NCBI RefSeq assembly: GCF_031769215.1 | Contig: NW_026782038.1 | Span: 124,001 to 188,000 of the forward strand | Direction: 5' to 3' | Origin: Ylistrum balloti | Taxonomy: Eukaryota | Length of the DNA stretch: 64,000 bases | Shown: positions 2 to 41,962 of the stretch, piece by piece | Layout: each line of letters opens with the position of its first letter | Numbering within the stretch: the stretch's first letter is position 1 | Made by a program: the position numbers and the translations under genes | Notes under the pieces: model-generated | The model's database searches: none | What the model was told of the DNA's origin: nothing | Seen by the model: the letters and a program-made list of their open reading frames with translations, nothing else

Positions 2-840
2 CAAAGCGGATCTGCTATAGCATTCTTGGGTATTTCAAGGAATCATGCAAAAGTTGCCAAATCAATAGGGAATTTAGTAGGGTGTGTAGCTGATAAAGAC
101 AGCGACATTGACAATCATGTGCTAAGAGATTGCCTCAAGAGAAAGACAGCCGATGAATTATTACAAGCCCAGTCGAATCCTGGGACTCAACATTTTGGAA
201 ATTTTTCTCTTTTACCAGCAATTTGGCCAGTTATTGATGGAGAACTACTTCAAAGATCACCTTTGGACAGTTTGAATGATCCGAACTCGGAAGAATCTAA
301 TTATTTTAGATCTCTTGATTTGCTGGCAGGTACGACTGATAACGAAGGATCATTGATGCCGATGTTTTTGGCGGGATTTCAAGAATCCATGGAATTCAAT
401 ATGACAGAAGGTATACCGACCCCTGTCTTATGTGACGTTGTGGCACCAACATTAGCTAAAGAGATGTTTAATGACAATAGTGTCGCATCAGATTTAATTT
501 GTAAGGAATATTCTTCTGACAACCTTGAACAACAGTCACGAAATATTGTAAATCTATTTGCGGATTCATGGTTTGTGTTTCCGACGATGCATCTTCTTGA
601 GTTTCATGCGAAGGATAAACTATCTCCAAACACATATCAATATATATATACTCAGGCAGTGAACTTTTGGTTTTTGATTCCCACTTATCCATGGATGGAA
701 GGAGCAGGGCATGCGGTCGAGTTGTTGTATATGTTTGGTCCGACAGGATTGAGTGAAAGGGATCCATCTTTGTCCACGGACGAAGGAAAAGCTTTCACTG
801 ACGTTCTCGTCACGTACTGGACCAACTTTGCCAAATCAGG
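2..840 (+). CDS. Carboxylesterase/cholinesterase-like copy 1, large exon (5' part outside window)
   Basis: Frame open from base 2 (QSGSAIAFLG...). Contains catalytic Glu (GTTDNEG), His (GAGHAVEL) and YWTNFAKSG. Donor GG|GTAAAT at 840/841. Confidence 0.93.
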
Positions 841-1405
841 GTAAATAGGGTCTTCGATACGCCAGTGGTTACAGTCACACCCGCTCTCTGCACCCCTTAA
901 ATACTTCATGGCAAAATAAAAGGTTACGTGTGTACATCAAACGATCTCGAAGTCGCATACCGGTATATTGTAATGACTATAAAGTTGGGTGTCGCTCCAT
1001 CGAAATCTCCAAAGGAAGCGTATCAGTCTGCGATTGGTTAGTTTTTGTTTGTAATAGAACCAACCAAATGTTCCAGCGGTGCAGAGAGCGACAATGATCG
1101 TAAACCATGGAGTATCGATAATGGATAAATAGATTTTATATATTTTATCATGCACATGCTCCTGTTTACATAAAATATCTGCATTACATTAACATTAGAA
1201 AGCAGGATTAGTGTAGTAATACTTCGTTACTTTCATTAATAAGTTACACTACTGATCCGTTTATTGATACAATGAAGGTAGTGGACATCATGAAACCGGT
1301 ATTTGTAAATTGTAGCTCTATCATTCACATGATTTTTACCTATCATACTTTATTCTTTATTTTTCGAATCTTATTACTGATGACGGAGTCTTGTATTCTA
1401 TATAG

Positions 1406-1580
1406 GAATCCGAATGGAGATGGCCTGGTTCCGTGGAAAGCGTTCAGTCTTAGTAGCCGGGACTATCTAGAGTTGAAGTACCAGCCAAGTCCGGGTGAGA
1501 ACCTGTTCGAGAAAAGGATGAAGTTCTTATCACAGGACATATCAAACAAAATACAGACCGCTGCCAAGACTGAGCTATAG
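1406..1580 (+). CDS. Carboxylesterase copy 1, terminal exon (NPNGDG...KTEL)
   Basis: Acceptor TATAG at 1401-1405. 175 nt; first base completes the Gly codon; ends AKTEL-TAG. Confidence 0.92.
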
Positions 1581-4482
1581 AAACAATTATTTCTGTACGT
1601 TATGTCAATACTTTACTTAGGTATTTTACATACACAAGGTACCGATTGACAATGAACAATAACAAGGCCATTCAATGGTATGTCTGTATAGTACCATGTT
1701 TTGGTTTCTTTAAACGAACATATTTGCATTCATGCTTTTGAAAATGTTGTTTGATTATTTCATGCCTGATTTCTTATTTACAACTTTAATTGTAAATATA
1801 CAAATCAAATCAACGTTTTATTGATTTGTAGCTATGTTTATCATTCCATTATTTTTTGATGAATTAAACTTAAATGAGGATTTATTCATCTTGTTGTTTC
1901 ACGATAATGGGACTTTATTTTCAACTAAGTACAAGTTCAATTCCATTAGGTATATGTCCCATGCATGAAGCAAAATACTATAGAATAGATAAGGGAATTT
2001 TTGAGTGGATGGTACAAATGATTTACAGATGAAAACGTCTTTCAATACATATTAAACTGTTGGAACACAAGAGGCGATTGGGAAATAATAAAAAAAAAGA
2101 TATCGACATATCAACAGAGCCTTAATTCAAATACGTTATATAACGGATACATGAAGATATTTATTTGATTTATTTGTTTCTATCTTCCTAAGACATTATT
2201 TCTGGTTTGTATGTCCTTATTAGTAATTAGTATCCATTCTAAAGTAATGGTTATGTAACGTTTCTTTCATTAGAGAATTTTCATGATCTTATCCCTAATA
2301 AACTTCTGATTTCTGTCGCTAACTTAAAGTTGTGGTTACAGCAGATGATGCACATCGACCTTCAAGATATTTATAATAACGACATACTAAAATGTGTCAT
2401 CTAAATGTGAAAGAGAGAGAGAGCATGATAACCTTTGTGACATATTCCGATTAACTTTTTTTCTGCATCCAGTGGGTTTGAAGGTAGGTCTAATGTCAGA
2501 ATGTCGATAAAGACGATAACCGTACAGCAGATGATATTCTCAATGCAGGGATTGAGTTCAGTCAATATTACCCCGATAGCTTAACTGGATAATTCTATAG
2601 CGAATGATACATAGATCCCAATCTCCATTTGAAAGAAACACATTGAGAACTTCGGATGAGTTTCCTATCATGATCTCTAGTTGATACCTGTCCACGGTGT
2701 TTGTTGTTTTATCGATCTATATATTTTAGTGAACATTCAGAGATAGACATGACGAATTTATGGCATGTACACCAGAAACCAATATAAACAACAATTTAGA
2801 CAGATAATCCACAGAGACAAATATTTCAAGCCTTTTCATATGCCTCAACTCATACCACGCGCCAAAACTATCGACAACTAGATAGGAAAGTGAGCGGAGC
2901 TGCTACGTCATCTATAGTTGAAAGGAACGTTTAGATAGTCTCAAGACAATGGGAGGGACTGTTTCGAACAAAATTTACAGGTGTTGGTTTTTGTTGAGTT
3001 TCGTTGATATTGCGAAAATTACTTGTTTTTATTCATATTCTGAAGATTATATAATGGATTTTTTTTTCATTTTAACACGGGATGCAAAACCAAAATTCAT
3101 TATCATGTTTGTTTAAATGCATATACAGTGTACTGGAGTTTATGCATAAAACAAGCATACTATCCCCTAAATATATTACTTGCTTTATTCTTATAAAAAT
3201 CTACAGTATTCTCATCTACAGATAAAATGTTTCTCTCAATATCTTGGAGCGTCGTCTTCTTGTAGACAATGATTAAGCTGGCCTCAATGGATTGCTGGTA
3301 TAAGTAGAACTGATTTGACATCCTCTTCGTTGTTTACAAGTAATAGAGATAATAAAATATACTCAGGTCTGGTAACACAAGTCCAGATGTAGGGATCTTT
3401 TTGGAAGTTTATTCATGTACACAAGAAGAAGCCTACAATTACAATGAATAGACATAATGCCATATACTTATAGTTATTGATGTACATATCAATTGAAATT
3501 ATAATAGATTGAACTGGAGAGTCAATCTTACCAGGTCTCTGGAGAGAATTCCTCCTCGGTTTGTGCCTAATGAAGTAATAATTATTTGGGCTTATGAGAG
3601 CATGTGGTTGGCTGCACATGCCCATACTAGGAATCTCGAGATGAGGTGCTTGATGAAATACCCCTCTCCCACTCAGGTGTGAAGTTAATATACACACATA
3701 AATAAACTAGACCAAGTTTAAGTATTGTGTATATACGGCTTACATAATTTCAAAAATGTTTCTTTATCTACTTGAGAACAACCTTAATAAAGAAATCCGA
3801 GATATTAAAACAATGTCCTACAAACTTAAACGTATTAAAGGGTTTTTCGGCATTCTATTTACAACCGATCAGAATAGAAGAGTTGCGTGTGTATTCGTTC
3901 TGACTCGTTTAACAAGGCTTTCTTATGTTATATGCTGCTTTGTATAATTGTGAAAATATATATGTGTTTGTTTGTTTTGCATATGCATGTGTGTAAGCTA
4001 AAACTGTCCTAAAATTCACGCTGTGTTATAGACCAAAGAGTAATGTCTCCATATGTACAAGGTAAGTTGATAGTGATTGAGTAACTGAACGCATGGTTTA
4101 CAAGGACAAGCTATGTTACTGCATTCCTATTGTCCTCTTTAGTCTCTGACTGTCCCCATTATATTACATTGACTGATAAACTTTAAAGGAAGCTACGTAT
4201 CATTACCAATTGCTTGGTTTGCTAATCCTTTATCGACACAAGAAGATGCATCTTTGATATTGTGCATGCACTATCAGATAACCTGCTGACATGGTTTGCG
4301 ATAAATAAGTGACGAAAATACAGGGACGGCACACATTCTTTGATGATGATGATACTAGTCTGGATTTTCGAATACCGTATCAATTCTATTGACATCGTGT
4401 AGCGAATCGGTGCATTCGTTAATACTGGTATCAGTTTTAGTCCCGATAAGTAATCAGTAAAGATATTGGTACTGTGTAACGA

Positions 4483-4690
4483 CAACTCAAAAACAAGTAT
4501 TTCGTGATAATATTGGTAGTATGTCGGTACAACTCAAATAGAAGAAATTCGTGATTAAACTGGTAATATGTTGGGGCAACACAAAAACAAGAAATTCGTG
4601 ATTAAATTGGTAGTATGTTGGGGCAACTGAAATACATGTAATTCTAGATTAAATTGCTAGTATGCTGGGACAACTCAAATACATACAACT
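4483..4690. repeat. 47-bp minisatellite, about 4.5-5 units
   Basis: CAACTCAAA starts at 4483, 4530, 4577, 4624 and 4671. Confidence 0.9.
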
Positions 4691-5579
4691 CCAAGAGGTA
4701 AGTAATGACATTGATAGTATATATAGCACAACTACTGTAATCAGTAATGATCTTCCTGTCAAGATTGAAGATTTAATGGAGACTTTACAGGAAACATTAT
4801 AGGTATCCATCGAACTACGTTATATTCGCTTCCTCTATTCTTGATACGAAACCTTCAAATATATTCTGCTTATACTACTTCTTGTGACCTGTAGAAAGAA
4901 GCTTGCAGATTTTATAAATTCATTGATGAAGTGACACAAATAAGGCTTTTTGGGCCTATCTGTACGAATGGCCGCCACTCTCCAGCAACTCGCCAATCCA
5001 TGAAAATATGTTATGTCATTTAAGTGTTATGATACAACTTTAACTTTCGAATGTTTTATTGTATGTGACGAGCCCTAACTGATTTATACAGGTGTCAGAT
5101 GAGCCAGTGGTTCCCGAATTTACTGGAATTGTGGTATCCGCAAAGAAATAGACATTTAGACCGATTTTAACAACGGACGAGCTTGATCATGCAAATGTGG
5201 TGTGGAATGACATAAAATTTTACGATACAATACATACAATTTTAATTCTGCAAAATGTACACATATTTTTACTATTTTGCCACTATATATAAAATACACA
5301 TATCTAACGCTCATCCATTCATTTTCAGCCACTTCCGGTGAATCGATACTGTCTGGATAGAATGACGCTCACAAGAGGTTTGGTCATTACTTCTAGATCA
5401 GAACGTCCCAGTCGAACTTCCTTCAATGAGGCTGGTACCGGATTGCAGACTCATAAAGAATAATTAACTTATCTGGCAGCACGATCAAAGATGTCCGTAC
5501 ATTAGTCACCTAGAACACAGTCAGATATCGGGTATAATGAGACATACATATACATATATGTTCATGAAAATAGGTACAA

Positions 5580-6460
5580 TACTGGGACAATGCTGTCCAT
5601 AGCACGTGATATCCATAGAAAATAAAGACACTCGTTCACCTAGAACCTACAGGTGTAGCCCACACAGGACCATCAGGATTCCTACATAGATTAGCTTGAA
5701 CCGAACCGCATCATAAGTAGATTTAGGCCATCTTAGTTCTACCTTCCTAACTGTATTTCGAGCTATAAGGTACGTAAGTTAGACTTACTTATTATCTCAA
5801 GATATCATCAAATTTGGGAGATGAGTTTATCTATCTCTACACTCTTGTTTAAAGATATCGAACAATCTAATGTTGATAATGTTTATGATATTTTCAGGTG
5901 TAAAGGTGTCTTCATATTGCCATATGTACCCTACACCCAATCTAAAAAGTTCATCTCTCACACCATACAGCCATTCGCTACCGTTTTATAACGTATCGCA
6001 AAAATTACAAGGACGAATTTTGAATTACAATACATGTGCAGAAGAATCGCCGCTTTTGAGAGATATTTGGTAACTTAGATGGAAGGTATGACTAGCTTTT
6101 TCACTTCTACATTGTCAGGTACGGGAATGTTCTACCTTAAATGACCTGCAAACTAGGTTTTACATACCATGTGCAAAATTTGTTTTAGATAATTAATCTA
6201 TAACAATAAATTTGTGAGGAATGAAAAATAGTTTTAAACGAGACATTTTGAATGAACTTGTTTCAATATCAGCAATTGTGGTTGTTGTTTAAAACTGCTG
6301 ATTGAATGCTCACTTATGTGTGATGTCTGTAATTGTTATGTCACTACATGGTTTGCCAGTATGAATTCTTACAATGGCGTGGGATTACAGTTACGCATGA
6401 ACAAACAGTGATATATATAGCGTAAAAGTTGCATGATCAGGGTATTCATGTTGAAAGCAG
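5580..6460 (-). mobile_element. Decayed L2/CR1-like LINE ORF2 3' fragment
   Basis: Disrupted frames give VRDELFRLGVGYIWQYEDT, RLFDIFKQEC and LEIQLGR. Similar at nucleotide level to 19596-20065. Confidence 0.6.
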
Positions 6461-7631: not shown

Positions 7632-9187
7632 ATGATGGCATCCCAGCTGTTACTTTGCGTGTGGGTTAGCTTCACGATGATACTCTACACATCATGCCAG
7701 TCCTTCCAGACAGTCCACACACCTTCCGGTCCTATCAAGGGACTGGTCGTCCCTACTCTTGGAAAGGATATTGTGCAGTTTAGGAACATTCCGTATGCGA
7801 AACCTCCAATTGGTAACCTTAGATTTGAGAAACCACTTCCGATAGAACCGTGGACAGAAATACTTGATGGAACTGTTTTTGGACCCTCTTGTATGCAGGA
7901 TAAATCTTTCCTGTCAGCTATAGGGGAAAATACAGATCATGCGATGAGTGAAGATTGCCTATATCTAAATGTTTATGTACCGGGAGATGTTTCGACCAAT
8001 GCCAACAAGGCAGTGATGGTTTGGATCCATGGTGGAGGATTAGTACTCTTCAATGGTTGGGGCTATGATGCCTCATTTTTGACAATGAAAGACATCATCG
8101 TAGTTACTATTAACTACCGCCTAGGGATATTTGGATTCCTTAGCACGGGAGACTTAACAATGCCCAGCAATTTTGGACTATGGGATATGATTGAAGCATT
8201 GAAGTGGGTTAATAAAAACATAGCTTCATTTGGGGGCGATCCTGATTCTGTGACTATTTTTGGTGAATCGGCCGGAGGCATCGCTGTGTCATTTCTGGGT
8301 ATAATTCCAAATACTGCTGGTTTATTCAAACGCATGATTGCCCAAAGCGGATCTGCTATAGCATACTATTGTGTTACAAGAGATCCCGTAAAATTTGCCA
8401 AATCTATAGGGAAATTAGTTGGATGTGTAGCTGGCAAAGACAGCGATATTGACAATCATGTGCTAAGGGATTGCCTCAAGAGAAAGACAGCCGATGAATT
8501 ATTACAAGCCCAGTCGAATCCTGGGACTCGGACTCAACATTTTGGAACATTTTCTCTTTTACCAACAATTTGGCCAGTTATTGATGGAGAACTGATTCAA
8601 AGGCCACCTTTGGACATTTTGAATGATCCGAACTCGGAAGAATCTATATATTTTAGATCTCTAGATTTGCTTGCAGGTACGACTGATAACGAAGGAGTAT
8701 TAATGCCGATGTTTTTGGCGGGATTTCAAGAATCTATGAAATTCAATATGACAGAAGGTATACCAACCCCTGTCTTATGTGACGTTGTGGCACCAACATT
8801 AGCTAAAGAGATGTTTAATGACAATAGTGTCGCATCAGATTTAATTTGTAAGGAATATTCTTCTGACAGCCTTGAACAACAGTCACGAAATATTGTAAAT
8901 CTATTTGCGGATTCATGGTTTGTGTTTCCGACGATGCACCTTCTTGAGTTTCATGCGAAGGATAAACTGTCTCCAAACACATATCAATATGTATATACTC
9001 AGGCAGTGAACTTTTGGTTTTGGATTCCCACTTATCCATGGATGGAAGGAGCAGGGCATGCGGTCGAGTTGTTGTATATGTTTGGTCCGACAGGGTTTAG
9101 TGAAAGGGATCCATCTTTGTCCACGGACGAAGGAAGAGCTTTTACTGATGTTCTCGTCACGTACTGGACCAACTTTGCCAAATCAGG
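7632..9187 (+). CDS. Carboxylesterase/cholinesterase-like copy 2, large exon (576 aa spliced)
   Basis: Signal-peptide-like N-terminus, GPSCMQ..SEDCLYLN, HGGG oxyanion loop, FGESAGG, GTTDNEG, GAGH. Donor GG|GTAAAT at 9187/9188. Confidence 0.95.
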
Positions 9188-9747
9188 GTAAATAGCGTCT
9201 TCGATACGCCAGTGGTTACAATCACACTCGCTCTCTGCACCCTTAAATACTTCATGGCAAAATTAAAGACTACATGTGTGCGACACATTGTGGAAAAGAT
9301 GTAAAGACTAGTTTGTAATTGTAATTTCCAGAGGGAGCGTATCAGTCTGTGATTGGTTAATTTGTTTCTCATGGAACCAATCAAACTACTGAGCTTGAAC
9401 CTTCAATTTCATCGTAATATGTTCCAACGGTGAAGAGAGCAAAAGTGATCGTAAACCATGGAGTTCCGATTATGGATAAATAGATTTTATATGTTTCATC
9501 ATGCAGAGATTCCTGTTTATATAAAATATCTGCATAACAATAACATTAGAAGATATAGTTATACTTCTTTACTTTCATTATCAAATTAAACTACTGACCC
9601 GTTTATTGATGCAATGAAGGTAGTGGACATCATGAAACCGTTATTTGTAAATCGTAGCTCTATCATTCACATGATTTTTACCTATCATACTTTATTCTTT
9701 ATTTTTCGAATCTTATTACTGATGACGGAGTCTTGTATTCTATATAG

Positions 9748-9922
9748 GAATCCGAATGGAGATGGCCTGGTTCCGTGGAAAGCGTTCAGTCTTAGTAGCC
9801 GGGACTATCTAGAGTTGAAGTACCAACCAAGTCCGGGTCAGAACCTGTTCGAGAAAAGGATGAAGTTCTTATCACAGGACATATCAAACAAAATACAGTC
9901 CGCTGCCAAGACTGAGCTATAG
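9748..9922 (+). CDS. Carboxylesterase copy 2, terminal exon (KTEL)
   Basis: Acceptor AG 9746-9747; 175 nt; NPNGDGLVPW...AKTEL-TAG. Confidence 0.92.
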
Positions 9923-11531: not shown

Positions 11532-11534
<3 letters not shown>

Positions 11535-11698: not shown

Positions 11699-11995
11699 CA
11701 ATTTAAATAGAAGTAATTCGTAATTAATAGTAAGTATGCTGGTACAACTCAAATACATGTAATTCTAGATTATATTGCTAGTATGCTGGGGCAACTCAAA
11801 TACTTGTGATTCGTGATTATATTGGTTGTATGCTCGGGCAACTAAAATACACGTGATTCGTGATTATATTGCTAGTATGCTCGGACAACTCAAATACATG
11901 TGATTCGTGATTATATTGTTAGTATGCTGGGGCAATTCAAATACATGTGATTCGTGATTATATTGCTAGTATGCTGGGGCAATTCAAATACATAC
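11699..11995. repeat. 47-bp minisatellite, about 6.5-7 units (paralog of 4483-4690)
   Basis: Unit CAACTCAAATACATGTGATTCGTGATTATATTGCTAGTATGCTGGGG; starts at 11745, 11792, 11839, 11886, 11933 and 11980. Confidence 0.92.
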
Positions 11996-13528: not shown

Positions 13529-13703
13529 CTAAAGTTCTGTTTTAACATTTTTCTTGAGCTTGTTAGGGATCTCCTGTAACAAGTATTTTATCCTCTTTCC
13601 GTACAAGTTTTGACCCGGTATCGGCTGGAACTTCAACTCCATATAGTTCCGATTGTCTGGTGTGAACTCTTTCCACTGTACTAAACCATCTCCATTAGGA
13701 TTC
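13529..13703 (-). CDS. Carboxylesterase copy 3, terminal exon (KTEL)
   Basis: Minus-strand acceptor CACAG; 175 nt; NPNGDGLVQW...VKTEL-TAG. Confidence 0.92.
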
Positions 13704-14350
13704 CTGTGCAAATAAAGTCTAAAATGAATATTGTAAACAAGAGAATGGTTAAGATCTGTTTTGATGTTATGCGATGTCCCTCTCTATCATTTAATAATTC
13801 AACAGAAAATGAACCTATTGTTAAACTGGTATTAGTATCAAAATGCGCCGCATTTATTCTTTATACCAAGATCAGTTATTTTTTCTCTTATATTTACACC
13901 CGGCCGGGGAATATATACATCTTTTGTTCAATCTTTTGACACTGTTTGTTTAACAGCTTATCATTGTATGTTACGTCTAAATGACGAGGAATAGAAATAC
14001 CGGTTTAGAATATTCACAAAATTTCAAAATTTTCCAAAATATGATTAAAGGGTTAATGTACCTACTTTGCTGCAAGTTATGATCGATATTGATTTTCAAA
14101 AACAAACTTCTGGATTTTAAACTTTTATCCCGTTGCAGCAAAAAATATCTCTAGAAGGATGCAGCTAATGTATAACGCAATTTAGTCCTTTTTTTAATAG
14201 ATTTATTTATTGTATAACCATTCTATTTTCACCCACTTTCATCACTCGCATCCTTCAAGAGACCTCAAGTGACGAAATCGCTGTATGGTGCACTTTTATT
14301 ACATATATATTTGATTTGTCTTTTTATGTGTTACAATAGAAGAGTCTTAC

Positions 14351-15903
14351 CCTGATTTGGCAAAGTTGGTCCAATAATTAACAAGGACGTCAGTAAATGC
14401 CCTTCCTTCATTCGTTGACAAGGATGCGTCCATTTCGTTCATGCCTTTCGGGCCAAACATGTAAACCAGTTCGGTCGAGTGTCCTGCTCCTTCCATCCAC
14501 GGGTATTCAGGAATCGCATAAGGAAAGGTCAATGTTTGGGTATACAAATATTGATATGTGTTAGCGTTTTTGTTATGCTTTGAGTGGAATTCGAGGAGTT
14601 GCACCGTTGGAGCATTAAACCATGCATCTGAATACAGATTTGCAATGTTTCTACCTTGTTGCTTGATGTTGGCAGCCGTATATTCCTTACAAAGTAAATC
14701 GGATACGACTGTATCGTCGTTGAACATTTCCTTAGCTAATGTTGGAGCAACAACGTCGCATAAAACAGTTGTAGGAATACCCTCAGTAATGTTAAATCCC
14801 ATGGGTTCTTGAAGTTCAGACATAATAATAGATAGCAGGGATCCTTCATTGCTGGTCGTGCCTGTCATCATATCTAAAGACCTAAAGTAAGAAGATTCCT
14901 CAGAATCCGGGTAATTTAAACTATCGTAAGGTGACCTCCGCAGTAATTCTCCATCGATAATGGGCCAGATCTGAGGTAAAAGAGAAAAAGTGTCTGTATA
15001 TTGAATTCCTGGATTCTGTTGAATATTTAACAACTCGTCGGCACTTTTGGTTTTGAGGCAAACTATCAGATTTTTGTTACTGATATCTTCATTTTCGTCA
15101 GCTATACATCCTAGGGCTTTCCCCGCAGCATTTGCAACGCCTGCGGGATTTGGAGCAATACCCATAAATCCTACAGCAGATCCACTTTGAGGTATGATAC
15201 GCTTAAATAAACCAGCAGTACTTGGAATCACAGCAAGGTATGACACAGCAAAACCACCTGCCGATTCGCCAAAAATTGTAACAGATTCAGGATCGCCCCC
15301 GAATGAAGCTATGTTTTGATTTACCCACTTCAAGGCTTCAATCATATCCCAAAGGCCAAAGTTGCTTGGTAGTGACGTATCTCCCGTACTGAGAAATCCA
15401 AATAATCCTAGACGGTAGTTGATGGTTACTACGATAACGTCTTTCATTGCAATGAGTGACCCGTCAGATTCCCAACTATTTCCCAATATAAAACCTCCGC
15501 CATGGATCCAAAACATGACTGGTTTCTTCACATCATTTAAAACTGATCCAGGTACGTAAACATTTAACTGTAAACAATCCTCAGTTAATTCCGGATTTTC
15601 TGGCATATTTTCCCAAAGCTCCGGATAAAAAGATTTATCTTGTATACAAGAGGGACCAAAAACAGTTCCGTCGAGTGTTTCTGTCCATGGTTCTACCGGA
15701 AGTGGTTTCTCAAATCGGAGATTGCCAACTGGAGGTTTTGCGTAGGGAATATTTCTGAACTGCACAATATCCTTTCCAAGGGTAGGGACGACCACTCCCT
15801 TGATTGGACCGGAAGGAGTGTTGACTATCGGGAATGTCTGACCTGATGCAAATACAATCACCTCATACTGTAGCAAAACACATAGGAGGATCCGGAAATT
15901 CAT
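14351..15903 (-). CDS. Carboxylesterase/cholinesterase-like copy 3, large exon (575 aa spliced)
   Basis: ATG at 15903 (MNFRILL...) lies 9 nt after acceptor TTGATTCAG. Motifs HGGGF, FGESAGG, GTTSNEG, GAGHSTEL. Donor GG|GTAAGA. Confidence 0.95.
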
Positions 15904-21223: not shown

Positions 21224-21398
21224 CTACAGTTCAGTTTTGACATTATTCTTGATTTTGTTCGGTATTTCCTCCAAAAGAAACTTCATCCTCTTCTCGTACA
21301 AGTTCCGACCTGGCACTGGTTCATATTTTAACTCCATATAGTCCCGACCTTCGGAACTGAATGGTTTCCACGGGACCAAACCATCTCCATTAGGGTCC
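21224..21398 (-). CDS. Carboxylesterase copy 4, terminal exon (KTEL; missed by ORF track)
   Basis: Manual translation: G|DPNGDGLVPWKPFSSEGRDYMELKYEPVPGRNLYEKRMKFLLEEIPNKIKNNVKTEL*. Acceptor AG at 21400-21399; 175 nt. Confidence 0.92.
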
Positions 21399-21999
21399 CT
21401 ACGTTAGATAAAAACTTCATTTAATATATATCGTATAAAAAAAGATAACAAAACATGCGACTGAACAATTGAAGTCTTTACCGAACAGACTGCTGACAGA
21501 GAGAAACCAGCATTAAGGATGTTTACAGTGGAATTAGTCATTAGTTATTTACTGGATTTTCCATAGGACACAAAACAGAATATGAAAATTCAACACATAG
21601 CTATCATTTGATTGTAGTTTTATGCTAAAAATGTAGAAAAGTTTTAGAAACGTCCTACCTTAAAAAAGATTAATTAGAATAAAGCTATGATCAAGACATT
21701 TCAGTATGTGATACTGACTTGCAGATGACTTGTAATCTTAAGTCAAAATCTGAATTAGGTGAGGTATCTTTTTATGTAAATAATATATAGTTAATGTATC
21801 TATGATATTTTTTAGAAACATGAAAATTAAAAAATTGAAAACGCTAATGCTTCATTCGAAATGTGGTTTGTAGTTATTTTGATATCAAGTATTTCACCAG
21901 ACACTGTTAATTGAACCTTTATATTTTAATATATATGATATTCTAGATACATTATCTATGACGTTATAACAAGGGTGATTATGCGATCTTTTGTGCGTG

Positions 22000-22162
22000 N
22001 NNNNNNNNNNNNNNNNNNNNNNNNNNNNNNNNNNNNNNNNNNNNNNNNNNNNNNNNNNNNNNNNNNNNNNNNNNNNNNNNNNNNNNNNNNNNNNNNNNNN
22101 NNNNNNNNNNNNNNNNNNNNNNNNNNNNNNNNNNNNNNNNNNNNNNNNNNNNNNNNNNNNNN
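22000..22162. other. Assembly gap (163 N) inside the copy-4 intron
   Basis: Run of N. Confidence 0.99.
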
Positions 22163-22170
22163 ATCCATAC

Positions 22171-23720
22171 CCTGTTTTTGCGAAGTTAGTCCAATATCGA
22201 GCAAGGACGTCCGAAAAAGCTCTGCCTTCAACAGTAGATAACGATTCATCCAGTTCGTTCAGACCTGACGGTCCGAACTGGTAAAGCAGCTCGGTCGCAT
22301 GCCCTGCCCCTTTCATCCACGGAAAATGTGGTGCCATGTAATGGAAATTGATTGGCTGATTATATAAGTATTGGTAGGTTCTAGGTGAAGCTTTGCCGTT
22401 AGCATGAAAACCTAGAAGTTGAACTGTGGGAGAAACAAACCATGTGTCCGCGTGCAAAATTGAAATGCTTCTTGCTTGTTCTGCCATATCATCAGAAGAA
22501 TATTCTTTACAAAGTAAATCTGAAACTATGGAATTATTGCTAAACATTTCCCTTGCTAATGTTGGTGCAAAAACGTCACACAACACAGCCGTTGGCATAC
22601 CTTCAGTCATGCTAAAATTCATCGGTTTTTGAAGCCATCCTAAAAACATTGCAATTACCGAGGCTTCGTTGCTAGTTGTACCAGCGATCATATCCAATGA
22701 TCTGAAGTAAACTGATTCCTTTGAGGTTGGGTCATTCAAACTTTCTAAGGGGGATCTTGGAAGAAGCTCCCCATCAATGGTTGGCCAAAGTAAGGGTGAT
22801 ACAGAGAAATAACCGAAAAATTGCGTGCCTGGGTCCCTTTGAGCATTCATTAATTCTTCAGCCGATTTGAGCTTGAGACAGTCTGCAAGATCATTGGTGT
22901 TGACATCTCCATCTGTGTCTGGTAGACATCCAACAAATTTCCCTGTAGCTTTCGCAGCTCTGACAGGATTTGGTGCAATGCCCATAAATCCTACAGCAGA
23001 CCCACTCTGAACTATGAAACGTTGAAAAAGGCCTGCAGTGCTTGGAATCACAGACAGGTACGATGCTGCGAAACCACCGGCCGATTCGCCAAAAATGGTT
23101 ACCGATTCAGGATCACCCCCAAATGATGCTATGTTCTTATTTATCCACTTTAGGGCTTCGATCATATCCCAAAGTCCATAGTTACCAGGCATAGCGGAGT
23201 CCTCAGTGCTTAAGAACCCAAATATTCCGATGCGATAGTTGATGGTTACTACTACAACGTCCTTCATAGCCAGGAACGACCCGTCATATGTAAATGTACT
23301 TCCCATCATAAAAGCACCACCATAAATCCAAACCATTACCGGTTTTTTCACTGTAGTTGTCACCTCACCTGGAACATAGATATTCAGCTGCAAGCAATCC
23401 TCGTTCACTTCTGCATTTTCTGCTTTTTCCCATAGTTCTGCAAATAGGGATTTATCTTGCATACAAGAAGGTCCAAACACAGTTCCATCAAGGATGTCCG
23501 ACCAGGGGTCTACTGGAACAGGTTTCTCAAATCTTAGGTTGCCAACTGGAGGTTTAGCGAACGGAATATTACGAAACTGCACAATATCCGTACCTTGAGC
23601 AGGGACGACAACACCCTTGATGGGACCGGATGGAGTGTTGACTATAGGGAAAGTCTGACATGATGTAAATGTAATGAAGATGGAGAACAGGATCGAACGA
23701 TAGAAGAGGATGTGGTTCAT
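22171..23720 (-). CDS. Carboxylesterase/cholinesterase-like copy 4, large exon (574 aa spliced)
   Basis: ATG at 23720 (MNHILF...) lies 8 nt after acceptor TTACAG. Motifs WIYGGAF, FGESAGG, GTTSNEA, GAGHATEL. Donor GG|GTATGG at 22171/22170. Confidence 0.94.
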
Positions 23721-31437: not shown

Positions 31438-31917
31438 GTTACATTGTCGTGACAGTAGAATGATTGCTGATGAAACGACATACATGTATTTACAACATTG
31501 CCTCTATTTTTCGTATTTTAGGGTTAATAAAATGTTCGCAAGTTACACAAAATATCAAGATTATCATGTTTATATACGGTTCTATAATACATTATGCCTT
31601 AAGTCAATTGTCTGTTTAAAGGCTTATTTTCCTGTGAAACTACACAGTTACAGAGTTAAAATATTTTCATCATGATATCAAAAGAAGATCACAGTATTTT
31701 TATATTAGTATTTCATGCTTTAATTTCTCCGCTACAGTAAATGATAGAGCGTTCTGTTATAAAACAAATATATTTCGACAGTCTACAAAGAAAGTTTACT
31801 GGTGTATGAAATGGCACTGTTAATATGAAAACGAACTACCATAATGATAAACATGCCTCCCCACAACACATAAATCATAAATAACATGATCTTTATTTTC
31901 AATACTTGGTTATTAAA

Positions 31918-32121
31918 GATTCACATGGTTTAACTTGATTTCTCTACTAACTACGAGACCCCAAGCTCAGTTATAACACTTACTAGGATTTCACACGATA
32001 TAGCTTGAGTTCACTTCTCACTACAAGATATAAAGTTCAGTTGCAACATTTTCTAGGAATTCACACATAATAACATGATTTCACCTCATACAAAAACAAC
32101 CTAAAGTTCAGTCTTAACACT
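31918..32121 (-). repeat. Three degenerate 70-71-bp units, the first overlapping the KTEL-stop codons of copy 5
   Basis: AAG(T/C)TCAG anchors at 31963, 32033 and 32104, each preceded by an ATTCACA/TTTCACA block. Confidence 0.75.
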
Positions 32122-32275
32122 CTTGCTAAGCTTATTCGGGATATCCTCAAGCAGCAATTTCATGCGCTTTGCAAAAACGTTTTGTTCCATGACAGGTTCT
32201 ATATTCAAATTCATGTAGTTATGTTCGTTTGGACCAAAGGTCTTCCAGTGAACGAGGCCCTCGCCATTAGGATTT
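32101..32275 (-). CDS. Carboxylesterase copy 5, terminal exon (KTEL)
   Basis: Acceptor TTTCAG; 175 nt; NPNGEGLVHW...SVKTEL-TAG. Confidence 0.92.
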
Positions 32276-32527
32276 CTGAAAACAGGCAATGTATATGTTT
32301 AGTCCAAGCTGACGTATGAACTGTGGCAGTACAAGAAATTAAGAAATTATAATTAGGAAAAAGCAAAGCATCAGTGTTATGTGCCAGTAGTTGAGTTCAC
32401 TTCAATATCTTGCAACAGGTCAAAGATCAATAACTATATATTGTATTTGGTAATTTATGTGTGAAATGTTTAAATATGATATTTATGTAAAAAGTCTAGA
32501 TATACTAAAAAAGACCTTAAAACCTAC

Positions 32528-34068
32528 CCATTTTTAGCAAAGTTGGTCCAGTAGTTCACAAGAATTTCTGTCAGCGCTCGTCCCTCTGTACTGGATAATG
32601 ATTCGTCGAACTGATTCAATGTTCCCGGACCAAAAAGGAACAATAGTTCAACTCCGTGTCCAGCCCCTCTAGACCATGGAAAACTGGGAATTATAAAGGG
32701 AAATGTAATATCCTTTGTAAACAAGTATTGGTATGTATTCGAACTAGTCTTTCCTCTTGAATGGAAATCCAGTAATTGTTTAGTTGGAGCCACAAAAGCA
32801 GTGTCAGCAAACAAATTTGATATGCTTCTGGATTGCTCTTTGATGTTTTCTTCACTATACGCTTTACATAGCATTTCCGGTACAATGGTTTCATCGCTGT
32901 ATGCTTGTCTGGCAAACGCAGGGGCTAAATCCTCACACAATACAACAGTTGGAATACCTTCTGATAAATTGAAGTTCCTGGACTCCTGCAGCTGCATGAT
33001 AAGGAATGGCAAAATTGAACCTTCATTGTCCGTCGTTCCTGACATCACATCAAGAGATCGAAAGAAAACAGATTCTTTAGATGTCAAATCCTCCAAGCTT
33101 TTGTAAGGACTTCTAACGAGCAATTCTCCGTCAACAAGTGGCCACAACAGCGGAGCCACTTTTAAAACTCCAAAGTCCGTTGTACTAGGGTCACTCTGGG
33201 CTTTAAATAAATCTTCAGCAGATTTTTCCTTCAGACAACCTACAAGAGCTTTCTTGTCAACAGTCGAGTCGTTTTCAGTGATACATCCAACATAGCTACC
33301 AACTCTCTTGGTAAGTCTGAATGGATCATGTACATCCCAAAACTCACTAACTGAAGCTCCACTCTGGCTAATTACGCGTTTAAATAGTCCTTCATTGCTT
33401 GGAATAACTGATAAATAGGAAACAGCGAAGCCTCCTGCCGATTCTCCGAAAATGGTAACCGATTCAGGGTCGCCTCCGAATGATGCTATGTTTTTATTTA
33501 CCCATTTCAGTGCTTCTATCATATCCCATAGTCCATAGTTACCTGGTAGGGCGGCATCTCCTGTGCTTAGAAATCCGAAAACTCCGAGACGGTAGTTAAT
33601 ACTGACCACAATGACATCTTTGAGTACTAAAAACGACGGATCCAGGAACCAGCTATTTCCTATCTGAAAACCTCCGCCGTGAATCCAAAACATGACGGAC
33701 TTTTTCTCTGATGTTGAAACCGCCCCTGGCACATATATGTTAAGTTGAAGGCAGTCTTCTGAAGTAATGTTATTTTCTGCCCTTTCCCACATCTCTGGTA
33801 AAGAGTGACTATCTTGTATACATGAAGGTCCGAAAACAGTGCCGTCTAAAGTTTCCTTCCATGGTTCAATGGGAACAGTCTTCTCAAATCGAAGGTTGCC
33901 CAAGGGAGGTTTAGCATAAGGAATATTCCGGAACTGAACTATATCCTGTCCGAGAGTAGGAACAACAATGCCTTTGATTGGACCGGAAGGAGTGTTGACT
34001 ACCGGGAAAGACTGGGAGGTAGCCCCAGCTAGCAATGATGCAAGCCATACAATCTGGTATACAGCCAT
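32528..34068 (-). CDS. Carboxylesterase/cholinesterase-like copy 5, large exon (571 aa spliced)
   Basis: First ATG at 34068 (MAVYQIV...) after acceptor TTTTTTTCTGCAG. Motifs HGGGF, FGESAGG, GTTDNEG, GAGHGVEL. Donor GG|GTAGGT. Confidence 0.95.
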
Positions 34069-37000
34069 GGTCGTCACTATGTGTATTCTGCAGAAAAAAA
34101 AAGCGATTTCTGTTTCCGATTGACTGTATCAAATGCAGTTAAATCTAAGGTAGTAAATATCTTCCTATGCTTATCAAGTCTGTTGTTCTGGAGTTATTTG
34201 AGAAATCAATATTGTCTTGTTAACTTTTCACAGGTAAACAATATCACATTTTCGTGAAAAAAACCTTTGCAGGCTTACATGAATGAAAAGGGACAACAAA
34301 TCAGCTTATACAATTGACAAACCCGGGGTACAAAACCAGAATCTTGGAGGTGTCATTTACAAGTAACACTACGTTCCATGATACAATTTCATTTCCATCG
34401 GCGTAAGCAAACAATGCATTTCAAATTACTTTATCAGATGTCTAACTCAATCCTCAGCCGGAGCTAGACAGTGGAGCAGTGGACATCGACAGCTAGGTTT
34501 CCGCCATATTTTCAGCCGCGGAGTAACTTGAAGTTTAACTCTCTCTGAACGCTTTACATCATTACGTCTGTTAGTGACGCGAATAAGTAACATTTTCTAT
34601 GTGAATATGAAAATAAATTTCCATCGCACTGCGAAGTTATAATGAGTGAGTAGTGCCCGCGAAAAGCCTAGTCAGCTTCCTTGTTTTATAAGTATTCTAA
34701 ATATGTCAGTAATTTAGCTACATGTATTTTGCTTGTGAAAGTGTAATAAATAGAATATTCAGTAGTGTCGTCAGTAGTTACAAATATCTTTCACTGGTGT
34801 GTTTAGTATTTTTAGTATATCTGACGTAAAAGATACTAAAATATTAAAATGTGAAATATATTTGTTATTACTGAAGACACGATTATGTATCCTCAATACC
34901 TAGTGTCAGCAGAATCAGGGACACTGCTATAAAACACACATACAGTACACACGTAATAAAATGCCGTCTACATAAAATACACGCATTTATTGCAAGCAGA
35001 AAGATATCAACATAAACAAGATAATGTCTGTGTCACTGTTGCATAAAGCGCTACATTCTAATGCGTCTGTATCGGTTGAGCTCCTTATGTTGAGTCACTA
35101 GGTGGCTGTGAACGTCATTAAACAATACCATAATATTCAAAGCCGTTTTTCTATACTGGTTTTTTTAATTGTAAAATGTATAAATCATATTGCTTACCTC
35201 TGTTGCCGTAGTACCCCACTCTTCTTTTATCTGGGTGTTGAACTATGGATATCTGCTTTTATCTACAGTTAACTAAATCACCACACGCGTATGTACACTG
35301 TAGCAAAGGTATGTTGTGTTAGGAGCGCTGCGTGATTTGATCAATCAGAGCAAATCTCACGCACACTTTAATCGAATAGCTTATTCATACTACTCGTATC
35401 GTACGATATGTTACTGCACATCAAAATATTTAATATAAAATTCCAAAATTGTATAGTTTTTGATAATACCTTTTAAAAGCGGTTTATAAGAAATTTAACC
35501 AGTTCGTTTCATTTGAAAACGTAAGCACATATAAAGCACGGGATCTAACTCAAAGACAACCTGTGCTAGAAATAGCAAGCGACATGTAAGACCTATGTAT
35601 AGACAAACTGGCGTATCACGGTATATGAGTAACACTAATTGTTGTCTGGAGATGGTCGTATGTAGTATGCGTACACCTACATCGCTACCACGAGCAACCC
35701 CGACGGTTTTCGTAAAGGGAAGACGAATTATCTTTCCGACTACTCAATATGAAGTAATGATGATACCACATGTTGTAGGAAGAGGGGAAGACAGAAATGA
35801 GGTCAAAAGAAAGAAATGTCTGTGTTATCAACTAAGGAATAATTACAACCTTATAACTTGTATCACAGTGATAGAATGCTTTGTTTTAATTGCTTTTCTA
35901 TCAAGTGTTCTAAAAATTGAAACAAAAATAAATTCTAACTATAATAGCACTCATGGCAGTATACAATGAAATGCCGTTATCGGAGGACATGTGATAATGA
36001 ATTGGTGACATGTAACCATTTTTACATACATTGTCGAAGTGCTAAAGGGTTAACGCCGATCTGTTACATATAGAAAGATAAAGACGGCCGTAACAAATCA
36101 GAAATGGAACCCTTCGCACAACAAATTGATATCATTAAGAGGATATTTGTGTTATATTTCGTGTTTTGACAGATTCGTGAAACTTTTTAAACTAACATAT
36201 TGGTTTCAATCATTTATTGATGATGACTGAATTACAAAATTGTATTGTTTGATGTGCATTGCGTATGTTATTCAGTTGATATTTCCTCCTGATAATGTTC
36301 AGAGTGCATATTTCCTTAGCAATCCTTCGCCGACTCAGCAAAATCAAGATAAACATCATTCATTTACTCGTTGGTTTGAAATGGCCCATGTGACGCAGTA
36401 TATTGTTCTTGAAAGTTGTATCAAAACTAACAGAAAACGTGATAAATCTTCTAATGATTAAGACTGGTTCTCGCTCTCAATATATGTTTTCCCATAATGA
36501 CTGAACAACAACACCAAAATATCAATAGAATCTTGATTCAAGCTCAATGAACTATGAACTAGATTTACAAGAAGGCTCCTGAAGTAATACACGTAGAATA
36601 CAACAGATATTCCTGGGGGTAAAAGTCTCCTGCTTTATCGACGACATGTCGTATAAGCCATGGTCAATTAATGGAATTGATGTCACCAAATGAGATAAAG
36701 GTAAAACTGTTAAAAAGCCACAATGAAACCAACATGCATATTAACGATTATCAACCACATTTAACTTAATATCACACAAAGAAATAGAATGTGGTCTTTA
36801 TGACGATCATAAAACTTCCCTATATTCATCATCAACCTGCATCTCTCGAAAGTCTGCGTTTAGAGTTTATCACATCTTGGCGGATTTGTTGCATGGTTGG
36901 TAAATATGATATAGACATAGTCAATATGTATTCAAAATTTCAAAAAATTCAAAATATATAACATAGCTCATTTTTTATTTATTCCATATTGACCAGAAAC

Positions 37001-39544
37001 ATGTGGGATTTCAACATAGAAACACTGTTTCTTAGTGTTGTTTTCAAATGCGAAAACGAAGTCAGTTATTATTTGTCTACTTACAGAAAACAATAAAGAT
37101 CTTTTCAGAGTGATGATTACAGCGAGAGATAAATGCATAACTGTTTAAGAGCAAGTACAATGTGATCAAAGTTATGAGATAGGTCCTTACGTCATAAAAA
37201 CAAGAGATCCAAGGGGAATCTTGACGCCCATGATTGTTTGGTCTTCATTTTTTTTTTTTTTTTTTTTTGAAACTTGTATATTTTCCCTTCTTTTATCTTC
37301 CTTCCTCTTATTTCTCTTATTCCTACATATAAAATATGAGAAAGATCCATCCAGTACTTCTCAGGAATGAGCGATTACAGACTTCTGTTGTCACAATCCA
37401 GAGCCCAGAATGCAAAATCCACATTTTGTAGAATCAACCAAGTAGGAAAGATACATGTACATATGTTTGAATTGATTTTCCTCTTCAAATATTGAAGCTT
37501 GCATCAGTACGGAAGCTATGTATTAATTTGTTATTGCCATCTTTATTAAAATGCGTATCTTAATTATAGCTCTATCACTCTTCGTAAAGGACCTAATAAC
37601 ATCCAATAAGGAGTCATGTTCTGGCGACCTTCGCACCATCTGTACTTAATAACAGATGAATGGCCCGAATGACATCTACAGCAAGTCATTTCGTCACAAC
37701 ATGTAGACCATTCTGATAAAAATTCATATATTTATTTTCGCTCAGGTAGCATTTTAATCACATTGACATAAAGATATGCTCTAGCTTCAGTCGACATGTT
37801 GTGATGAAATGATTTAATAAACAACTAGGATTATGCAAGCTATTTCGTCTACCTTCGTTCACTTTCAAAATTCGATAAACGGTAATGTGCTTGGCTAAGG
37901 CAAACTTTTAACAGAACATGACCTGTTATGAGATGTTGTTAGATCTTATTCGGATCTGCATTTTAATCAGACGGTTTGTTACCTGAAACATTGTAGAAAA
38001 ATAGTCATTTCTTAACATATTAAAAAAAAATTAAGAATTAAGAAAATTCAAAATGAACGAATAATCCTTATTTGATCTATTTTATTCAAATTACTGTTTA
38101 CCTTATTCTCAAACTATCTAGGTTTACTTGGGTCTAGTTAGGACATGCCAGACCCTATTGTCAATATTAGCCGTCACCGGTCCACTTAAACATGGTGACA
38201 GAGAACACCGAGAGACAAGTGTTTAACAGTGATCTAGATTATGACCCGATAAATGTATACATGCATGTACTATGAACTTATTTCATTTCATACTTTTAAA
38301 GGCCGTAGTATCAAAAACATCAATGTAAAACCTGATAGGAGAGTTACCGCTTCTAATATCAGGTTCACAGATTCACAAAATGTCCATGAATGGTTTGCTT
38401 ACACATGAACATAGTGGTAAGCGAGTAAGTTGAATTACACAGTAAATGTATCGTCCATCTTTACATATCAAATCATACTTTTTTGTCACTTCACAAGTTA
38501 TCCCAACATGCCATTATCAGTTGGTGATATGTTATTTTCTCATATTTAATGATAAAATGCATATTCCGTTAGTGGGTCATATAAATGCCACGGTAAATAT
38601 CATAATCCATTAGATTGCTTGCTATGTGTTAAAATCGTTGTCAATAATACTTGAATTTTCATTCCAACGGTAAATGCTATGATCAGGCCTCAAAATACAC
38701 ACATATATTCAACCATTTTGTATAACCATATTATAACTATGATGATAAGAGAAATGATTTACATCGTAACAACAATTTAATGTCACTTTCGTATACTGTA
38801 AATACATGAAGTTTTTCCGTTGAATTCATTGTTACACTTAATCCACGAATTTATATGTCCATAAAATGTTAAATATATAAATTGCCATGAATTATAGTTC
38901 TTCTGAATTTCGGGAGCAAAATATATTTCCACAAAATCAAGCAAACCGTGCACTTTTTGCAAAACAACCGAATATGAGCCCAACGATGATAAATAATTTC
39001 GGGAGACGTAATATAACACATACACCACATGCTTATATCACGTTCATGACATCCATGTTTCCCTAAATGCTATATCAGCCTGTCTGGTTTACTTGTTTGG
39101 ACAATACGCAATACTTCGAACTTCTTTTTCATGGGGTTGGGTTGTCATTATTCTCATTATGTTTGAATAGTATTGAAATAGTTTGCTCATTCGGAAATAT
39201 ATCAATATAAATGTATTCCAATCAGTTCAGATTTCCCTTGGTTAAAAAAATGTGTACAAATTATATTGACTCTTTTAATATTAATATTATTTTCATATTT
39301 ATATACACATCGATTGTCTGGCTATATGCTTATCTTTATAAAACTGCACTGTTACAAATTAAAATACATTCTTGATAATGATATCAAAATATGAGATAAA
39401 AATGTTTTTCGACATCTAATTATGGGACGTTTTCCAGTCGTCATTAAGATTTCATTGAGAAATAATTTATTTCTTTGTATGATATGACACTGGACGTTGG
39501 TTCCGTTGTTGTCTACCTTGTTATTTGAAAACCTATTACTTACA

Positions 39545-39740
39545 TGGATTGACCGAGCTTTACATTACGGGTGTCGTTGATGAAGCAGAAGACGCTTAAT
39601 CTTCCGGAACACCTGGTCTTTTCACCTTGTTCTTTTTCAAGAGTTCCCGTGTAATTGTTTATTTTGGTCATATTTTGCCCTTGTTTTATTGAATTTAAGC
39701 TTGGATTAGGAATATGTTGACATATTGGTATTTTCTTGTT
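39545..39740 (+). mobile_element. Relic of a short interspersed bivalve-type repeat, possibly Penelope-associated
   Basis: ACGGGTGTC...GCAGAAGACGCTTAATCTTCCGGAACACCTG resembles a recurrent bivalve repeat consensus as recalled. It is absent from the paralogous copy-5 flank. Confidence 0.35.
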
Positions 39741-39866
39741 GATCTATATATGCATTGTACACGTGATTTGCTCCGCTACAGTTAGTGATAAAGCCAGCTG
39801 TTATAAAACAAATACATGACGAAAGTTTTAAGTAAAAGTTCAATTTTAAAACTCATCGTTATCAGG

Positions 39867-40065
39867 GATTCACAATGTATAACTTAAATTCATCCTGAGC
39901 TAACTACAAGACCTAAAGTAAAGTTTTAACACATTTTCTTACAATAGATTCACATAGTACACAGTATAACTTGATTTCAGCTTGAACTAACTACAAGTCA
40001 AACACAAAGCTCACATGCTGTAGACTGAATCTTTACTACAAATCCTAAAGCTCAGTCTTAACACT
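39867..40065 (-). repeat. Related degenerate repeat units at the 3' end of copy 6
   Basis: GATTCACA..TATAACTT..TTCA..CTAACTACAAG occurs twice. CCTAAAGTAAAGTTTTAACAC mimics the KTEL-stop segment CCTAAAGCTCAGTCTTAACAC. Confidence 0.7.
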
Positions 40066-40219
40066 CTTCCTAAGCTTATTCGGGATATCCTCAAGCAGTA
40101 ACTTCATGCGCTCTGAAAATACATTCTGATCCATGACAGGTTCTACATTCAAATTCATGTAGTTATGTTCGTTTGGACCAAAGGTCTTCCAGAGAACGCG
40201 GCCCTCGCCATTGGGATTT
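40045..40219 (-). CDS. Carboxylesterase copy 6, terminal exon (KTEL)
   Basis: Acceptor TTTTCAG; 175 nt; NPNGEGRVLW...SVKTEL-TAG. Confidence 0.92.
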
Positions 40220-40412
40220 CTGAAAATGATGAAAAACAGGTGGTTTGAATTAGCAGCACAAATAATTTTATGAAACATAACATTGAAATATTGAAAATAG
40301 CAAAACATCAATTTTATGTGCAAGTGGTTGAGTCCAATAAACTACATCACAATGGATCAACGACAACAAGGTTGATAATTCGAATATAATGACAAGAAAC
40401 TTCATCACCTAC

Positions 40413-41962
40413 CCCGTTTTAGCAAAATTACTCCAATAGCTCACAAGAATTTCGGTCATTTCTCGTCCTTCCGTACTGGATAAAGATTCGTCGAGTTGGT
40501 ACATGCCATCCGGACCAAAAAGGTACAATAGATCAACTCCATGTCCAGCTCCGTCTCTAGACCAGTTATAATTGGGAACTACAAAGGGAAACGTAATGCC
40601 CTTTGAAAACAAGTATTGGTATGTATTCGAACTGGCTCTTTCCCTTGAATGGAAATTCAGTAATTGTTTAGTTGGAGCAACGAAAGCAATGTCTCCAAAC
40701 AAATTTGATATACTTCTGGATTGTTCTTGGATGTTTTCCTCACTGTAGGCTTTACAGAGCATTTCCGGTACAATGGTTTCATCGTTGTATGCTTGTCTGG
40801 CAAACGCAGGGGCTAAATCCTCACACAATACAACAGTTGGAATACCGTCTGATACATTAAAGTTCCTGGACTCCTGTAACTGCATGACAAGAAATGGAAC
40901 AACTGAACCTTCATTGTCCGTCGTTCCTGCCATCATGTCAAGAGATCGAAAGAAAATGGATTCTTTAGATGTCAAATCCTCCAAGCTTTTGTCTGGATTT
41001 CTAACGAGCAATTCTCCGTCAATAACCGGCCATAGTTGTGGACTAATGGGTATATCTCCAAAGTCCGTTGTATTAGGGTCGTTTTGAGCTTTAAATAAAT
41101 CTTCAGCAGATTTTTCCTTCAGACAACTTACAAGAGCTTTCCGGTCAACAGTCGAGTCGTTTTCAGTGATACAGCCAACATAGCTACCAACTCTCTTGGT
41201 AAGTATGAATGGATCCTTAACCTCCCAAAAATCACCAATTGAAGCTCCACTCTGAGGAATTACGCGTTTAAATAGTCCTTCATTGCTTGGAATAACTGAT
41301 AAATAGGAAACAGCGAAGCCTCCTGCCGATTCTCCGAAAATGGTAACCGATTCAGGGTCGCCTCCGAATGATGCTATGTTTTTATTTACCCATTTCAGTG
41401 CTTCTATCATGTCCCATAGTCCATAGTTACCCGGCAGGGCGGCATCTCCTGTACTTAGAAATCCGAAAACTCCGAGACGGTAGTTAATACTGACCACAAT
41501 GACATCTTTGAGTACTAAAAACGACGGATCCAGGAACCAGCTATTTCCTATCTGAAAACCTCCGCCGTGAACCCAAAACATGACGGACTTTTTCTCTGAT
41601 GTTGAAACCGCCCCTGGCACATATATGTTAAGTTGAAGGCAGTCTTCTGAAGTAATGTTATTTTCTGCTTTTACCCAAAACTCTGGTAAAGAGTGAATAT
41701 CTTGTATACATGAAGGTCCGAAAACAGTGCCGTCTAAAGTTTCCTTCCATGGTTCAATGGGAACAGTCTTCTCAAATCGAAGGTTGCCCAAGGGAGGTTT
41801 AGCATAAGGAATATTCCGGAACTGAACTATATCATGTCCGAGAGTAGGAACAACAATGCCTTTGATTGGACCGGAAGGAGTGTTGACTACCGGGAAGGAC
41901 TGTGAGGCAGCCACAGCCAGCAATGATGCAAGCCATACAATCTGGTACACAGTCATGATCAT
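40413..41962 (-). CDS. Carboxylesterase/cholinesterase-like copy 6, large exon (about 574 aa spliced)
   Basis: TTCAG|ATG at 41962 (a second ATG is at 41956). Motifs HGGGF, FGESAGG, GTTDNEG, GAGHGVDL. Donor GG|GTAGGT. Confidence 0.95.

Follow-up and report, generated by a model that had tools for sequence, protein, structure and literature searches.

The window, by which we mean the whole stretch of 64,000 nucleotides of the Ylistrum balloti genome that was analysed, contains a tandem array of six intact carboxylesterase genes, which six-frame translation places two on the forward strand and four on the reverse strand. Each gene consists of two coding exons separated by an intron whose donor (cut between GG and GT) lies in phase 2 within the glycine codon of an NFAKxG motif, at window positions 840, 9187, 14351, 22171, 32528 and 40413 in copies 1 to 6. 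The introns measure 565, 560, 647, 772, 252 and 193 nt in the same order and end in AG acceptors. The first coding exons are 1541–1553 nt long, and the coding portion of the last exon, which runs on as 3′ UTR, is exactly 175 nt to the TAG in all six copies and ends in KTEL. The spliced reading frames of 571–575 amino acids have no internal stops. The layout described by an earlier sequence-only reading of this DNA, namely a large exon of about 1.55 kb, a phase-2 intron in the FAKxG glycine codon and a 175-nt end with KTEL, was thus found in every copy.

Copy 1, on the forward strand, begins at G000:C181:123294, 707 nt upstream of the window, so that the window holds only the 3′ part of its large exon (1–840), its intron (841–1405) and its last exon (1406–1580, ending AKTEL). 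Because its 5′ half, GESAG motif included, lies outside the window, this GESAG was invisible to the sequence-only reading; the claim of six intact genes with GESAG triads was borne out for all six once the upstream flank had been added for copy 1. Copy 2, also on the forward strand (large exon 7635–9187, intron 9188–9747, last exon 9748–9922, ending AKTEL), is 93% identical to copy 1 and encodes a signal-peptide-like N-terminus, GESAG, Glu and His in its large exon. The four genes on the reverse strand all end in VKTEL: copy 3 (large exon 14351–15903, intron 13704–14350, last exon 13529–13703), copy 4 (22171–23720, 21399–22170 and 21224–21398, with a masked N stretch at 22000–22162 inside the intron), copy 5 (32528–34068, 32276–32527 and 32101–32275) and copy 6 (40413–41962, 40220–40412 and 40045–40219), the last being 87% identical to copy 5. 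Public Ylistrum balloti gene models are letter-identical to five of the six window proteins (P0007 for copy 1, P0001 for copy 3, P0009 for copy 4, P0012 for copy 5 and P0013 for copy 6), and our junction calls rest on the sequence together with these five exact matches; in run X1 the introns are covered evenly, in a DNA-like manner. An acceptor 0–19 nt before the ATG had also been proposed for copies 3–6, and candidate AG dinucleotides do lie there, at 9, 8, 19 and 0 nt, respectively; copies 1 and 2 have weaker AAG candidates 8 nt upstream of the ATG. The array is therefore real, intact and largely annotated already.

In a Pfam scan of the eight other open reading frames of the window and its upstream flank, a single MBOAT fragment exceeded the cut-off. 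The MBOAT-family O-acyltransferase gene in question (PF03062; L001:1845-2186, L002) lies upstream of copy 1, its end being some 7 kb away. Towards the other end of the window, unrelated minisatellites follow one another over positions 55972–63972 (with periods of 58, 19/73/92, 43, 49, 42 and 31), and a long Cys/His-rich open reading frame at 61494–62096 overlies the 42-bp array.

What kind of enzymes do these genes encode? The five large exons scanned match COesterase (PF00135) at E values of about 1e-121 to 1e-124, with scores of 408–418 bits where the gathering cut-off is 27. The catalytic triad is complete in all six proteins (Ser of GESAG, Glu of T(D/S)NE and His of GAGH), as are the HGGG-type oxyanion glycines, and every copy has a hydrophobic N-terminus, six common cysteines and a pI of 4.7–5.0. 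The C-terminal KTEL found in all six resembles KDEL and is a putative ER retrieval signal of the kind carried by vertebrate CES1–5. Neuroligin traits, that is, loss of the catalytic serine and a transmembrane segment with a cytoplasmic tail, are not present in these proteins, in which the triad is intact and the tail soluble. The top matches in sequence and fold are CES1 and CES2 (PF00135; PDB 9grb, 8axc, 1mx1). Against solved structures, copy 2 scores 236 bits with CES2, 226 with CES1, 224 with bile-salt lipase, 220 with neuroligin, 207 with AChE and about 196–206 with BChE, so that all top relatives lie within about 40 bits; the true scallop AChE (L035), for its part, reaches 450–520 bits against the solved cholinesterases. 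In fold comparisons, CES2, neuroligin and AChE resemble the AlphaFold model of copy 3 (pLDDT 94.9) to about the same degree (TM 0.78–0.82), and a search of the ESM Atlas returned generic carboxylesterase clusters only. The array proteins share with CES1/CES2 the GESAG triad, the HGGG-type oxyanion hole, a size of about 61 kDa, an acidic pI, tandem clustering, the first and second disulfide pairs in the absence of the third, cholinesterase pair, and a C-terminal XXEL ER signal. Unlike CES1/CES2, to which they are about 30–34% identical, they end in KTEL instead of HXEL, form a separate clade and carry an extra conserved cysteine pair near residues 380/403. Their genes have two coding exons, whereas CES genes have many.

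We consider it likely, with a probability of roughly 0.7, that the six genes encode type-B carboxylesterases that act as soluble, CES1/CES2-like enzymes of the ER lumen on lipophilic dietary, xenobiotic or lipid esters. The signal peptide would carry the protein into the ER, and KDEL receptors would retrieve it through KTEL, as the human proteins with this tail suggest, which are reported to localise to the ER (PMC2140024). KTEL is described as binding KDEL receptors weakly, and AGR2 as leaking out (PMC7519367); partial secretion is therefore possible. For comparison, the tails of CES1 and CES2 are given as HIEL and HTEL, and the pI of CES2 as 4.8–5.0 (PMC6146386). Within the lumen, the Ser-Glu-His triad and the HGGG-type oxyanion hole, both observed as residues, would hydrolyse esters, and lipophilic esters are the reported substrates of CES1/2 (PMC6146386, PMC2266714). 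The idea of a tandem expansion of ER-retained esterases thus stands as regards the expansion, the intact triad and the KTEL in six of six copies, and the retention itself is probable.

The array has continued to duplicate. Copies 1 and 2 differ by a Ks of 0.126 and a Ka of 0.036, copies 5 and 6 by a Ks of 0.19, and Ka/Ks is 0.08–0.34 where estimable, which indicates purifying selection overall. The same 47-bp minisatellite follows copies 1 and 2 on their 3′ sides (window 4481–4683 and 11705–11993) and so marks the extent of the duplication of about 8.3 kb that produced them. That these two copies are merely two haplotypes placed in tandem by the assembly is hardly credible, for although the duplication unit with its flanks is 81–92% identical, their Ks and Ka are far above the differences of about 1% seen in run X1, whose contigs also have a depth of about 20–30 over the shared stretches against about 10 over unique ones (X1 may be the source sample and is hence not independent). 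The amino-acid differences within the recent pairs are concentrated in the segments that line the gorge (18/81 against 7/181 in other coil for copies 1/2, and 25/82 against 16/181 for copies 5/6; p about 1e-5). For this contrast, the segments were defined by landmarks of AChE once the list of differences was known. Ka/Ks is 0.66–0.68 in the gorge and 0.16–0.26 elsewhere. Since the gorge values stay below 1, they do not amount to a signature of positive selection, and a relaxation of constraint explains them no less well than selection does. The gorge-loop changes fit a diversification of substrates: among tandem duplicates with a core under purifying selection, divergent gorge loops might widen the range of esters accepted.

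Do these genes derive from cholinesterases? The sequence-only reading had proposed that they are cholinesterase-derived and had pointed to the gene layout; such an origin would mean descent from within that group, with loss of the tetramerisation exon and acquisition of KTEL. Part of this observation stands. The scallop AChE gene (L035) has one large exon that ends at the same phase-2 intron as the window genes; downstream of it come an NPN-type exon and, after that, a separate tetramerisation exon (C588:1122709), these tail exons having been located by protein search. A profile search of the genome with PF08674 gave no match, and its controls gave none either. The window genes lack a tetramerisation (WAT) exon, their coding sequence ending in the NPN exon with no third coding exon after it. 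Among the motif rows of the fetched loci, GT occurs at the FAKxG site in 46 of 50, including the neuroligin-like gene L052, and the large exon and its intron are therefore not diagnostic for cholinesterases; of the claimed cholinesterase-type scaffold, the exon and intron are real features of scallop AChE, but the intron is found in a neuroligin-like gene as well and the third exon of AChE is absent. Open reading frames that end exactly at FAxxG make up 35/120 of the AChE hits and 36/120 of the family hits, and one of 119 vertebrate CES models ends at FAHTG, which is a hint only of a common intron. Vertebrate CES genes have many coding exons and may share the FAKxG intron. BCHE is reported to have four exons (PMC11526157). 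In the silkworm, one phase-2 intron is described as common to 45 of 69 CCE genes (PMC3017765), and from its position we infer that this is the same site as the FAKxG intron; the accessible part of a honeybee paper (PMC1761136) makes no mention of a FAKxG intron. The likeness to cholinesterase genes probably reflects an old, superfamily-wide intron and a large intron-free exon and not descent within the cholinesterases.

The residues tell against such descent as well. Array proteins share the fold, the triad and the large exon up to the FAKxG intron with cholinesterases (AChE of the ace-1 type and BCHE; PF00135 and PF08674), and they lack the hallmarks of that group. The choline-binding W84-type motif (the W-N-P-x6-EDC omega loop) is present in 110/120 AChE hits and in 0/120 family hits, five window proteins included. 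An omega-loop Trp does occur in copies 3–6, which might speak for a cholinesterase origin, but it is out of register, lying 12–13 residues before the second cysteine where the cholinesterase spacing is 10, and copies 1 and 2 lack it, as do most members of the family that fall outside the KTEL clade. Both positions equivalent to the third disulfide, C402–C521, are occupied by other residues in all six proteins; an equivalent of D72 is absent from the window proteins when aligned to cholinesterases; and the equivalents of the gorge aromatics (W233, W279, F288, F290, F330, F331 and Y334) are mostly aliphatic or polar, in loops whose alignment is uncertain.

Trees were computed from subsets of 93, 40, 28, 75, 34, 40 and 30 rows, drawn from about 490 fetched proteins and from genes of the scallop's own genome; the sampling did not extend to bile-salt lipase or to the AChE/BChE and neuroligins of vertebrates, and the supports are SH-aLRT or SH-like values only. 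In every tree that includes them, the cholinesterases form a clade of their own without the family (SH-aLRT 98–99 in five trees and 86 in one). The window proteins group with proteins of bivalves, gastropods, Lingula and Lineus (support 90–96), and the vertebrate CES proteins form another clade (99–100) to which they do not belong, so that they are placed outside both groups. With the full family set, all six tests that joined the family to a single cholinesterase subgroup rejected the nesting (p 3.6e-38 to 0.035). A union with AChE alone gave AU p=1.8e-4, 0.035 (LG) and 0.011 (mixture model), with 5e-5 in a further test, and unions with mollusc AChE or with the two other scallop cholinesterase-like genes were likewise rejected. 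These two genes, L036 (C105) and L038 (C390:14368), group together as the sister of the AChE clade, and both retain the Trp motif and have extra introns. A derivation of the family from inside the cholinesterase clade is hence rejected. With nesting rejected at AU p 0.011 under the mixture model and at up to 0.035 under LG, and with the cholinesterase-defining residues absent, the ancestry originally proposed is very unlikely and may be regarded as largely refuted.

A broader relationship fares somewhat better, namely that the lophotrochozoan family as a whole and the cholinesterases are sister groups, that both took the large exon from a common ancestor, and that the CES-like ER chemistry is convergent. 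Scallop AChE and the family have this exon in common, FAxxG endings being about equally frequent in the two sets of hits, and a union of the family with all cholinesterases was not rejected (p 0.12, 0.50 and 0.28; 0.07 without L034). Unions with CES (p 0.43 and 0.73) and with neuroligins (p 0.36) were not rejected either, and the free trees, where resolved, lean towards CES as the sister group (88 in FastTree and 87 under the mixture model with tunicate and hemichordate rows); the constraint that joins the family to CES is better by about 6 lnL units. The extra introns of L036 and L038 also count against this relationship, as they imply that intron loss may be repeated. On balance we consider it unlikely.

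The array is an ordinary part of a large two-exon family of molluscs, brachiopods and nemerteans, judging from sequence comparison. A search of the scallop genome gave 76 matches, of which 49 are of the type with one large exon. Their last-exon tails vary, being of ER, secreted and GPI types, and comprise KTEL, HQEL, hydrophobic GPI/TM-type sequences and endings in -VG, -LG or -GK. Eight further KTEL genes lie on contigs C1162, C876, C136 and C123, some of them probably haplotype duplicates. Among public homologs that reach past FAxxG, the last four residues are KDEL-like in 37 of 84 (18 KTEL, 8 HDEL, 5 RDEL, 3 KEEL and 3 others). Mussel, oyster and Lingula proteins carry such tails as well, and the family extends to gastropods, to Lingula, a brachiopod with two proteins that end in KTEL, and to the nemertean Lineus (KDEL). 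The notion of a lineage-specific redirection to the ER is accordingly not supported, since tails of the KDEL kind are found throughout much of the family, with KTEL present in a brachiopod too. Maximum-likelihood trees favour separate gains of ER tails in scallops and in mussels/oysters, but a single origin was not rejected (p=0.20, 0.30 and 0.27). The KTEL clade to which the window genes belong comprises 25 rows (support 100) and includes homologous genes of Pecten, Mizuhopecten and Argopecten, and because sub-branches of it are common to more than one scallop genus, the array is pectinid-wide and older than the scallop genera sampled. The pectinid models, five of them identical to window proteins, are called "carboxylesterase 1D-like", "cocaine esterase-like" or "fatty acyl-CoA hydrolase-like", and other members of the family bear the names acetylcholinesterase-like, neuroligin-like and cocaine esterase-like, all of which are automatic best-hit labels. 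In the mainly open-access literature, supplements excluded, we found no paper that treats the bivalve family as a clade. Some members (L011, L012, L015, L016, L025 and L033) have altered nucleophile motifs, among them GGSAG, GTSFG, GTSSG, GASAG and GHSTG, and L011 lies within the KTEL clade yet has a GPI-like tail, which suggests that the address can be switched through the last exon.

What, then, might the array be for? A detoxification role is plausible. In the digestive glands of bivalves, ester phycotoxins reportedly undergo hydrolysis and acylation, in part within microsomes (PMC6266557, PMC3640381), the acylating enzyme being described as requiring acyl-CoA. A digestive esterase of Perna canaliculus that hydrolyses pectenotoxins and okadaic-acid esters represents a possible functional class; the source, in the part available, calls it digestive and gives no sequence, so the comparison is by description only (PMC6266557). 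The same source, as far as it could be consulted, states that the Japanese scallop does not open PTX2. An alternative is that these are housekeeping enzymes of ER lipid metabolism, such as acyl-CoA, triacylglycerol and sterol- or retinyl-ester hydrolases, and not a detoxification battery. CES enzymes of the ER lumen are reported to use endogenous esters too (PMC6146386, PMC2266714), orthologous sub-branches have been retained across scallop genera, and the upstream neighbour is an acyltransferase gene of the MBOAT family. Ongoing duplication (Ks 0.13 and 0.19) with gorge-centred changes argues against it. Continuing duplication and change of this kind are more typical of environmental-response families. 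We hold the housekeeping role to be possible, if somewhat doubtful.

Returning to our preferred reading of the array as CES1/CES2-like ER esterases, we note that carboxylesterase genes in tandem and with ER signals are familiar from vertebrates and insects, and the array itself is therefore unsurprising; it was the cholinesterase ancestry that made it look so, and this fails the tests run. The interest of the array lies in the family to which it points, a large one whose automatic labels are wrong and which probably provides much of the carboxylesterase activity of bivalves, and in the concrete candidate genes it offers for the metabolism of ester toxins and pesticides in shellfish. It also serves as a warning that neither the FAKxG intron nor the large exon is a usable guide to cholinesterase ancestry. 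In a more speculative scheme, which we think rather unlikely, an intron-purged sister gene of the cholinesterases gave rise to a lophotrochozoan CES-like system with a swappable last exon, of which the KTEL array would be a convergent ER detoxification battery. The last exon would then set the address of the product, in the ER (KTEL/HDEL), secreted or GPI-anchored, or would be read through to give poly-esterases. If this were true, the array members would be candidates for the microsomal and digestive enzymes that process ester phycotoxins.

Apparent poly-esterases were observed at two other loci, and these genes may deserve more attention than the KTEL array. At G000:C390:2570500-2586900 (L017, L018), seven tandem GESAG domains lie behind one N-terminus and are followed by a GPI-like tail; after each FAxxG intron, the NPN-type exon reads without a stop into the next domain, giving exons of 537–539 amino acids. 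The public model that apparently corresponds to this contig (P0057, 506 amino acids) has one domain only, and multi-domain relatives are recorded for Lineus, Saccostrea, Solemya and Styela. The second locus, G000:C166:112000-127000 (L028, L029), has about five tandem domains, of which three have identical search scores and one contains stops, and it is possibly in part a mis-assembled repeat. Many fish ces2b models are likewise of two domains, with about 1080–1090 amino acids, and represent either real fusions or a systematic merging of gene models.
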